64,000 bases of DNA from Escherichia coli. Its GTDB lineage: Bacteria > Pseudomonadota > Gammaproteobacteria > Enterobacterales > Enterobacteriaceae. The notes under the pieces were generated by a model. It saw only the letters and a program-made list of their open reading frames with translations. It was not told the origin of the DNA and did not search any database. Of this stretch, positions 52,784-53,706 are shown piece after piece. The stretch lies in assembly GCF_051903065.1 (NCBI RefSeq), contig NZ_CP178438.1; one strand, given 5' to 3'. Each line of letters opens with the position of its first letter. The stretch's first letter is position 1. The translations under genes and the position numbers were made by a program.

Positions 52784-52806
52784 TCACTACATGTGTTAAA
52801 TATTTA

Positions 52807-52840
52807 AACGGGCGTATAACACGCCCGTTGTTTTATTTAT
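52807..52840 (+). terminator. Rho-independent terminator of icd
   Basis: aacgggcgt-ataac-acgcccgtt hairpin followed by gttttatttat. Confidence 0.85.
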
Positions 52841-52885
52841 GTGGATATTATTAATAGCATATCGAGCATATTTATATAAAACCTA

Positions 52886-53209
52886 TTACTTGAGCCCATA
52901 TGGGCATATTTTTATAATGCAACTCTTATGCAAACATTTATTTGTTATTTCGCTTTCTCCTGGAGGACACTCTTGACTGCTTTTAAGTAAACTCCATAAA
53001 TTCTTGTTGAATGGTGCAATGTTATAAATAGTAATAGGATATTCTTTATCCTTAAGGATAATACCAGGCTTAACCGGTGTAAATATACTTCCAGGAGGAA
53101 GAAATATAGTAGATTGATACCAGATAATCATTTTCATATCACCCCATATGGCTGAAAAAGATATGCCGCATGTAGGTTGAATTACCGTGTCAATTACTAC
53201 CCACTTCAT
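52886..53209 (-). CDS. iraM: Anti-adaptor protein IraM (stabilises RpoS)
   Basis: 107-aa [26 protein letters not shown]... in AT-rich DNA; matches IraM/YcgW as recalled. Confidence 0.88.
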
Positions 53210-53675
53210 TTGTTATGTCTTATCCCACGGTATTTAATATAGTTCATTTGGATGTTCATTTCTTTATTTTGCATATGAGTATATTACCCCTTCAAAAAAT
53301 AAATTAATTAAAACGATTGCTTATATAAAACAAAATTTAAAGCAAGGAATCTCAATGGATGTTAAACAAAATGAGATTTAGTGAAAACAATAAATTATTC
53401 ACTTCGTTTTAGATTTGTTTAGCTATAATGTTATACATTCAAATGACTGACCATCCTGTAATTAAAACATAGCCTTTATGCTACTTTGTGCCAATTTGCT
53501 AAACATTATGGTTGCCTTTTTATATAACGATAATAATGAATATAAGCATGACATGAGAATAAGGTTTCAATTTTTGAGTTATATAGGAAAGGTTTAACCT
53601 GTTCCTGGCTAAAATACATATAACTGGATGATGACTAAACCAAAACACATGTGCGTTAAGTATTGAAACGGGCGT

Positions 53676-53706
53676 ATGGCACGCCCGTTGTTTTTATAAA
53701 TATATT
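53676..53706 (+). terminator. Orphan terminator-like hairpin, near-copy of the icd terminator
   Basis: aacgggcgt-atggc-acgcccgtt hairpin followed by gttttta; no annotated plus-strand gene upstream. Confidence 0.55.

Follow-up and report, generated by a model that had tools for sequence, protein, structure and literature searches.

Imperfect copies of the icd terminator on both sides of iraM in Escherichia coli, a probable remnant of prophage integration

Repeats derived from att sites around a decayed element are a well-known outcome at the icd integration hotspot. Prophage e14 of Escherichia coli K-12 targets icd and supplies an icd 3' end and a terminator of its own, so that a terminator stands on both sides of the element. 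In K-12, a diverged homologous terminator stands behind the icd end that e14 brought in, and the displaced host icd end (icdC) lies at the far end of e14 with the terminator referred to below as copy 1, followed by iraM and a further terminator, copy 2. Phage 21 is annotated in the order icd pseudogene, terminator, three attP arm sites, int, and xis, and terminators of the phage 21 type are 93–99% identical to copy 1. Because phage 21 and e14 carry their own icd 3' end and terminator, integration duplicates the terminator and leaves one on each side. A more general class of islets is flanked by att repeats and lost through deletion between them, with an imperfect direct repeat of ~48 nt, low G+C, a one-copy empty site, and no mobility genes, all of which recur at the locus described here. 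The locus differs from this class in that its repeat is the apparent working terminator of a core gene, not a tRNA 3' end, and in that the site has been re-used repeatedly, with scars stacked on one another.

IraM belongs to the three classical anti-adaptors by which E. coli controls how stable RpoS is. It has a PmrD-like fold and binds RssB (PMC10844676). The iraM gene and its paralogue iraL are variably present among strains (PMC4045071), and strain CFT073 lacks iraM (PMC4045071; PMC10844676).

The iraM locus was analyzed in a 64,000-nt stretch of E. coli DNA (contig NZ_CP178438.1), called the window below. A sequence-only reading of the window had proposed that iraM is bracketed by an imperfect direct repeat of the icd terminator, left either by a site-specific insertion that delivered iraM or by a lost prophage. 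The features of the locus, in window coordinates, are as follows.

51533–52783, + strand: icd, coding sequence of NADP isocitrate dehydrogenase (open reading frame; annotated in the 100% identical strain 23CRST027).
52619–52783, + strand: terminal 165 bp of icd, the homology block that icd-integrating prophages of the e14 and phage 21 types use and replace.
52789–52836, + strand: terminator copy 1, putative attL side, apparent working icd terminator (hairpin 52807–52829, T-run 52830–52836).
52820–52834 and again 53680–53694, + strand: CACGCCCGTTGTTTT, 15 nt identical between the two copies.
52837–53646: iraM cassette, an AT-rich putative remnant of 810 nt.
52886–53209, − strand: iraM, 107 aa, RssB anti-adaptor with a PmrD-like fold (open reading frame and annotation).
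53462–53506, − strand: ymgK, a 14-aa open reading frame within the cassette (position transferred from the RefSeq annotation of the identical strain).
53647–53697, + strand: terminator copy 2, putative attR-side relic (hairpin 53667–53689, T-run 53690–53697).
53742–53852, − strand: ymgL, a small open reading frame outside the repeat that is kept in iraM-less genomes (RefSeq annotation of the identical strain).
53905–54309, − strand: ycgX (DUF1398), AT-rich and phage-like, outside the repeat (open reading frame and annotation).
54530–55261, − strand: bluR (open reading frame).
55465–56754, − strand: bluF (open reading frame).

No e14 or other prophage is present inside icd in the window. The enclosed segment (52837–53646) has a G+C content of 29.8% compared to 50.6% for icd, which agrees with the earlier description of an AT-rich block between the repeats; however, the low G+C does not stop at copy 2 and runs on through ymgL and ycgX (36.3%) to about 54310. 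The block had also been said to hold no gene other than iraM, to which the RefSeq annotation adds ymgK. Between the copies, only iraM, ymgK, and short mechanical open reading frames were found, and none of them encodes an integrase, excisionase, or transposase. A repeat search detected no terminal inverted repeats at the cassette ends. Integrase recognition sequences had been suggested as a further check, and a motif search of 52601–54000 detected no arm motif of the 21 or e14 type (YYTTCCCCAAAA, GTTATCAAAA). An Rfam search returned nothing near threshold, and PADLOC returned nothing for IraM, YcgX, or the 455-aa protein of the type-3 haplotype described below.

The repeat itself is real. A repeat search paired 52792–52834 with 53652–53694 as a 43-nt direct repeat, 88% identical at a spacing of 860, which is the longest direct repeat within 52000–54600. 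When a 2-nt and a 1-nt gap are allowed, the homology extends over 52789–52836 and 53647–53697 with 44 of 51 columns identical, beginning with ACATGTG, 6 nt past the icd stop codon, and including the whole T-run. The overall identity is thus 86–88%. The sequence-only reading had placed copy 2 at 53656–53706, 9 nt too high, with the sequences themselves given correctly. Copy 2 has the same orientation as copy 1 and lies 858 nt downstream of it. A terminator scan called an intrinsic terminator on the + strand at both copies, each with a stem of 9 bp followed by a T-run, and both are accordingly predicted to be Rho-independent terminators. Copy 1 directly follows icd, and copy 2 has no + strand gene upstream.

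A convergent terminator of unrelated origin, or a target-site duplication made by a transposon, was considered as the source of this similarity. GC-rich hairpins with T-runs are common, and IS200C insertions occur next to the hairpins of this locus. However, the likeness of the copies exceeds the GC stem and includes ~20 nt leftward and the T-run, and the window contains exactly two occurrences of the core AACGGGCGTATNNCACGCCCGTTGTTTT, where 100 shuffles gave an expectation of 0.00. A target-site duplication is 2–14 bp long and exact, whereas this repeat is imperfect and, at 48–51 nt, far longer than any that an IS produces; it was therefore rejected, as terminal inverted repeats and a transposase are also missing from the cassette. 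Both forms of this explanation are further opposed by the orthologue of copy 2 in the type-3 haplotype, which extends into icd coding sequence, and by about 1,039 genomes in which the insert and precisely one repeat unit are gone. We give them practically no weight.

The relationship to icd-integrating elements was examined in phage and prophage records. Records of phage 21 and its relatives (28) match window positions 52700–52836 and stop at the right edge of the repeat. The icd terminator of phage 21 and of 21-like prophages, including those that carry sitABCD, thus ends at the last base of the repeat, as it does in the window. In lysogens, the window match begins at 52620 or 52625, in an annotated icd pseudogene fragment (icdC in K-12). 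Downstream of icd, the hairpin of copy 1 is also present in E. albertii, E. whittamii, Escherichia sp. 93.0816, and three Citrobacter species; in these species, homology to the window ends at 52836/52837 and is followed by 21-like, e14-like, or other mobile DNA. The 21-like prophages occupy icd in Nissle 1917, in other B2 strains, and in E. albertii. Direct repeats from the icd 3' region flank foreign DNA in the window, and the connection to the icd hotspot drawn earlier stands: the phages carry the icd 3' end with its terminator, relatives of IraM are found in prophages, and the type-3 haplotype holds both an attL sequence and an icd relic.

The locus also differs from these elements. Its repeat lacks the 165-bp icd segment that e14 duplicates, its insert is only 0.8 kb, and it has no intE, xisE, or arm sites; unlike phage 21, the cassette carries neither the YYTTCCCCAAAA arm sites nor int. 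An attR of the e14/21 type would include the last ~165 bp of icd, whereas the window repeat starts 6 nt after the stop codon. In the window, alignments of icd with the 165 nt that precede copy 2 gave no significant similarity; residual icd homology there was rejected, since the matches are scattered and no icdC is left. None of the 28 records of phage 21 and its relatives carries iraM near att. A donor attP was not found in IMG/VR, queried with the left half of copy 2 and the right junction of copy 1, in a metagenome scan, or in the phage collection. The IMG/VR and metagenome scans returned only the usual chromosomal arrangement plus chance matches, and the phage collection matched the cassette region at the open reading frame and the terminator only.

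The position of iraM relative to e14 was also clarified. In K-12, e14 ends at 1211412 and iraM lies at 1211680–1212003, beyond the e14 attR and so outside the present e14, and the window contains iraM and no e14. Thus, the published placing of iraM on the e14 prophage does not hold.

The protein family to which IraM belongs is found in phages. The window protein is 92–95% identical to named IraM and matches PHROG 4407 with E=1e-50. A Pfam scan of the window protein gave no match, and PF11183 is precomputed on 25 of 25 full-length homologues. Inside the cassette, the phage collection matches the iraM open reading frame alone (window 52883–53212), at 72% nucleotide identity in 45 Stx2-phage records. 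In these phages the homologue is oriented antisense to the late operon, with stx2AB immediately before it and the SASA esterase and lysis genes after it. The same prophage slot is taken by diverged IraM proteins, at 63% in E. albertii and 70% in E. coli. IraM homologues in lambdoid prophages have Q, whether or not stx2AB is present, on one side and the SASA esterase/lysis genes on the other. Relatives of IraM are therefore accessory genes of the lambdoid prophage late region. The PmrD-fold proteins IraM, IraL, and RssC behave in this respect as morons of one family (PHROG 4407), with 50–73% amino acid identity, among them the homologue of Stx2 phage 1717 and iraL of CFT073. The cassette and the phage loci are alike in that a small open reading frame runs opposite to its neighbors, icd in one case and the phage late genes in the other. 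The cassette differs from the phage copies by its own 440-bp upstream region, which it has in common only with the type-3 island. These comparisons indicate a probable phage origin for the enclosed DNA. The foreign look of iraM that had been tied to the repeat is borne out by the phage type of IraM, but the foreign AT-rich block is not bounded by the repeat, and ycgX beyond it is also phage-like, with a 69% homologue between Rz and nu1 in E. albertii lambdoid prophages.

The distribution of the cassette was determined among 5,426 complete E. coli genomes. The cassette interior was present in 3,939 of them, an intact iraM-less empty site in 1,039, including Nissle 1917, and a type-3 island in 19; the remaining genomes include IS insertions and larger deletions. 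IS200C was seen to insert beside the terminator hairpins. All sampled iraM-positive E. coli carry both terminator copies. Six iraM-less loci were fetched (GN06667, Nissle 1917, and four more), and in each of the six a single hybrid terminator occupies the site, with 860 bp missing, icd on its left, and the flank of copy 2 on its right. None of the iraM-less genomes fetched keeps both copies. The single terminator at the empty site, which the sequence-only reading had proposed to look for, is therefore what these genomes contain. The hybrid corresponds to copy 1 in its icd end, its left 20 nt, and its ATAA loop, and to copy 2 from the 5-T run rightward. The K-12 allele of copy 1 (TATTGA) equals the empty-site copy exactly up to GTTTT. 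Thus, one crossover within the shared CACGCCCGTTGTTTT relates the iraM-positive and iraM-negative alleles, in either direction.

A cluster of IraM proteins at 73% identity led to a third haplotype, termed type 3, in which a 6.3-kb island occupies the same icd site in the 19 E. coli genomes mentioned above. From left to right, it contains the following.

First: icd and its terminator.
Second: GTTTTTTTGTTAGCATGCTAACGGTTATCAAAATTTTATCAAAA, an attL arm sequence of the e14 family, with 81% identity both to e14 of K-12 and to the Citrobacter elements.
Third: a 455-aa open reading frame and a transposase fragment.
Fourth: trkG, 89% identical to the trkG beside Rz in Rac-like phages, and an Rz fragment.
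Fifth: a separate hairpin, then iraM' (79% nucleotide identity to iraM).
Sixth: a ymgB/ariR-like gene.
Seventh: DNA 72% identical to window 53238–53599.
Eighth: ~205 nt of unique sequence.
Ninth: gctATCAAGAATATGTtaacgctatacctaTTAAGTAcTGAACGGGCATATAACACGCCCGTT, the orthologue of copy 2.
Tenth: ymgL, ycgX, and bluR, with 93.3% identity to the window along 6.7 kb.

Like e14, the type-3 island opens with an e14-family arm sequence (GTTTTTTGTTAG..CTAACGGTTATCAAAATTTTATCAAAA), but it has no int. The window cassette is homologous (72–79%) to the right-hand part of this island and appears to correspond to the right-hand end of a larger prophage-derived island. The type-3 relic consists of ATCAAGAATATGT, the last 13 nt of icd, followed by the stop region and the terminator; the icd remnant is 13 nt long, or up to about 22 nt when a gap is allowed. 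The ~205 nt upstream of the relic are not icd-like (score 20 versus 16.7 +/- 2.4 in shuffles). The derived motif TTAAGTA is common to the type-3 relic and to copy 2 of E. coli. Because the type-3 orthologue keeps an icd end and shares TTAAGTA, copy 2 of the window is best regarded as an attR-type relic.

The direction of change was analyzed with trees of the two flanks. In the right-flank tree (2,667 columns), the six iraM-negative loci formed one clade with 100% bootstrap support, 2.4–3.3% from the iraM-positive alleles, which differ from one another by up to 2.9%. The window grouped with O157:H7. The right flank of type 3 differs by 6–7% from all iraM-positive and iraM-negative E. coli alleles, and in the icd-side tree rooted with E. 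albertii, type 3 branched outside all E. coli alleles, including the iraM-negative ones. Since the island is found in this outgroup haplotype and in the iraM-positive alleles, parsimony favors an ancestral island and one loss in the iraM-negative clade. On a sample of six iraM-negative and about nine iraM-positive loci with short flanks in a recombining species, this suggests that the iraM-less allele arose by secondary deletion between the two terminators.

Other comparisons were set aside. In E. albertii, E. whittamii, and Escherichia sp. 93.0816, the terminator is followed by prophage or other DNA and ycgX-bluRF is missing from the site, and in Citrobacter freundii the bluRF module lies elsewhere in the genome. 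These species are thus uninformative on polarity. The YcgX homologues of E. albertii and Escherichia sp. E10V10 are paralogues, located in a prophage and near yedEF. Loci L039 and L162–165, suggested as outgroups by RluE, proved to be ordinary E. coli iraM-positive loci that are 96.5–97.7% identical to the window. A deep split between iraM-positive and iraM-negative right flanks, initially indicated by 92% BLAST identity, was rejected because the same intergenic stretch also differs by 6–7% between iraM-positive strains.

The opposite polarity was weighed against these data. The single-terminator site of the B2 type would then be ancestral, and a small circular iraM cassette, or a phage end, with a diverged terminator-like att of its own would have inserted by site-specific or homologous crossover in CACGCCCGTTGTTTT, giving rise to the two copies at once, with no large prophage to erode. 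The alleles are symmetrical and fit this exactly, with attL as host left plus element right and attR as element left plus host right. The midpoint-rooted right-flank tree separates the iraM-negative from the iraM-positive alleles, the latter being monophyletic in 40% of bootstraps, and type 3 is more distant in the cassette than in the flanks, with 21% divergence between iraM and iraM' and 28% between their upstream regions, compared to 6.7% for the right flank. The divergence of iraM from iraM' is ~2x that predicted from the within-E. coli rate ratio and the flank, so separate acquisitions from related elements are possible. However, type 3 has an orthologous copy 2, with TTAAGTA and the right flank, together with a homologous cassette, and on either flank it branches outside the two E. 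coli allele classes. The searches for a donor attP described above also speak against such an insertion, and the icd coding relic of type 3 points to an icd-type attR instead of a terminator-only att. We therefore consider this polarity unlikely. Between the two origins offered at the outset, att remnants of a lost prophage fit the data better than a clean 0.8-kb insertion.

Constraint on the two copies was compared among eight iraM-positive haplotypes. The hairpin and T-run of copy 1 have 0 variable sites out of 30, and the 23 nt to the left of its hairpin are 26% variable and mosaic. The last 165 bp of icd are likewise mosaic, with 18.8% of sites variable versus 1–2% in the rest of icd. This mosaic pattern of the icd end and the adjoining 23 nt is consistent with repeated exchange with phage-borne copies. 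In copy 2, 5 of 23 hairpin sites are variable, and neighboring non-coding DNA varies at about 16%. Its stem is broken in the K-12, B1-type, AF57, and 23CRST032 alleles, its T-run is interrupted (GGTTTT) in several others, and the 20 nt to the left of its hairpin are invariant. The substitution patterns are those of a working terminator in copy 1 and of a decaying relic in copy 2.

Copy 2 could instead be kept as a functional terminator or insulator that guards the iraM promoter region from transcription out of ycgX/ymgL (− strand) or from antisense (+ strand) transcription, which is compatible with an att origin of the repeat. The invariant 20 nt and the + strand terminator predicted in the window agree with such a role. 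Furthermore, all four independent single stem changes (4/4) are G to A on the + strand and preserve G-U pairing in the − strand RNA; this strand bias has p about 0.06 with four events, and transcription-linked deamination explains it as well. Against the role, the hairpin varies as neutral neighboring DNA does, the K-12 allele has a mismatch on both strands, and the T-run is disrupted in the GGTTTT alleles. The − strand has no proper U-tract, and the scan called no terminator there. A retained function of copy 2 thus appears quite improbable.

Taken at a rough probability of 0.68, the two copies represent what is left of attL and attR after an old temperate element had entered the icd 3' end and later been almost wholly deleted. 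A temperate element with its own icd 3' end and terminator would have integrated so that icd stayed intact and a terminator remained on each side. Nearly the whole element would later have been deleted, leaving in the window copy 1, iraM with about 440 bp of upstream DNA, and copy 2. The icd pseudogene fragment adjoining copy 2 would have been lost, and copy 2, having no + strand gene to terminate, would have drifted. In one lineage of the B2 type, for example Nissle 1917, which we take to belong to phylogroup B2, recombination between the copies in CACGCCCGTTGTTTT may have removed 860 bp and restored a single terminator. Later prophages, such as e14 in K-12 and the sit-carrying 21-like prophages in ExPEC, would have re-integrated in icd, to the left of copy 1. 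The comparisons above directly show the repeat, its precise presence or absence with the cassette, the phage ties of IraM, the terminators carried by icd phages, and the icd relic of the larger island; from them we infer the order of these events, the identity of the integrase, and loss as the direction of change in B2. Two features place demands on this decay. The window repeat starts 6 nt after the stop codon, so the icd fragment must have gone exactly, and its former presence is seen only through the type-3 relic. The known phage homologues of iraM lie in the Q-lysis region, far from att, so a position beside att would need large internal deletions.

The icd terminator may have a more general role at this site. 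Tentatively, its hairpin would be the fixed outer boundary of a homology block common to all icd-integrating elements, and each integration would stack a terminator-bounded cargo module that can be removed precisely by terminator-terminator recombination. One such deletion would have deprived the whole B2 lineage of IraM, and with it of the PhoP/Mg2+-responsive control that acts on RpoS stability, and type 3 would represent an earlier and larger stage of the island.

The placing of iraM in such a scar and the exact limits of the scar are new, as are the type-3 intermediate and the allele of B2-type strains in which the deletion is precise; a literature search found no published description of any of them. 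The exact boundaries (52837–53646) give a precise design for isogenic constructs, and the deletion allele provides clean natural knock-outs in about a fifth to a quarter of sequenced E. coli. The strain-to-strain presence and absence of iraM, which was known but unexplained, thereby obtains a concrete probable origin as eroded cargo of an icd prophage. Furthermore, the locus indicates that an integration hotspot can have a core-gene terminator as its edge over repeated rounds of use.

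The insertion element IS200C was found directly after the terminator hairpin at both copies of the repeat that brackets iraM. In strain MEW (locus L059, ~2749-3400), it follows the copy-1 hairpin with the junction CCCGTTGTTTTT|GTGCACAGAAAACCCCC, equivalent to window position 52836. The same junction was present after the copy-2 hairpin in O139:H1 strain W13-16 (L064, ~2763-3500; window equivalent 53697) and in a metagenome locus (L142). At least copies 1 and 2 are equivalent IS200C targets. In DETEC-P649, annotation places an IS200C within the empty site.

Copy 2 was compared among 8-9 diverse iraM-positive haplotypes. 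The 20 nt left of its hairpin and ~25 nt beyond (window ~53622-53672, ~440 nt upstream of iraM) were invariant, and the hairpin and the DNA around it showed 16-22% variability. In the copy-2-type stem (window 53667-53689 and its orthologues), all four independent single substitutions were G to A on the + strand, observed in K-12 (L006, ~17966), O111 (L063), AF57 (L060), and the rare type-3 haplotype (L172, ~11006). These changes keep G-U pairing in the - strand RNA only. The bias (four events, p about 0.06) may stem from selection favouring a hairpin on the - strand, downstream of ymgL/ycgX, or from transcription-linked deamination.

Loss of iraM also occurred by a separate route that did not use the repeat. 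NCTC11023 (L065, 3958-4810) carries IS1A 37 nt right of copy 1 and lacks the whole stretch from iraM up to the start of ycgH. The sitABCD iron/manganese transporter adjoins the att end of the icd prophage, upstream of the displaced icd 3' fragment icdC, in the sampled iraM-less strains (L054-L057) and likewise in iraM-positive AF57, all of them ExPEC-type strains. Phage 21 also has sitABCD beside its att end.

At a cut-off as loose as E<=10, a Pfam scan still gave no family for the window IraM (52886-53209), although every full-length homologue, including those 92-95% identical to the window protein, has PF11183 (PmrD) precomputed. The missing match probably comes from the scanning tool or its version.

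The type-3 haplotype carries a 6.3-kb island between icd and ycgX (NZ_CP098223.1, L172 4701-11034) and is rare (19 of 5,426 genomes). The island contains the following genes:

455-aa protein, with weak PHROG matches only and no PADLOC match
Rac-type trkG
diverged iraM
additional ymgB/ariR-like gene

The rluE-icd interval of this locus holds an IS3 element along with DUF1493 and STM2901-family genes. A transposase fragment in the island is 77-81% identical to the transposase region of a window locus (60806-62395) that comprises two ORFs:

60806-61405, truncated autotransporter-like ORF
61427-62395, IS903/IS5-like transposase ORF, directly after it

ycgX (window 53905-54309), which lies outside the repeat, is AT-rich too. 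Lambdoid prophages of E. albertii carry a 69% homologue (L031-L033, 5001-5405), flanked by Rz and nu1 and antisense to the late genes. The entire icd-ycgX stretch looks like prophage accessory genes stacked by more than one integration.
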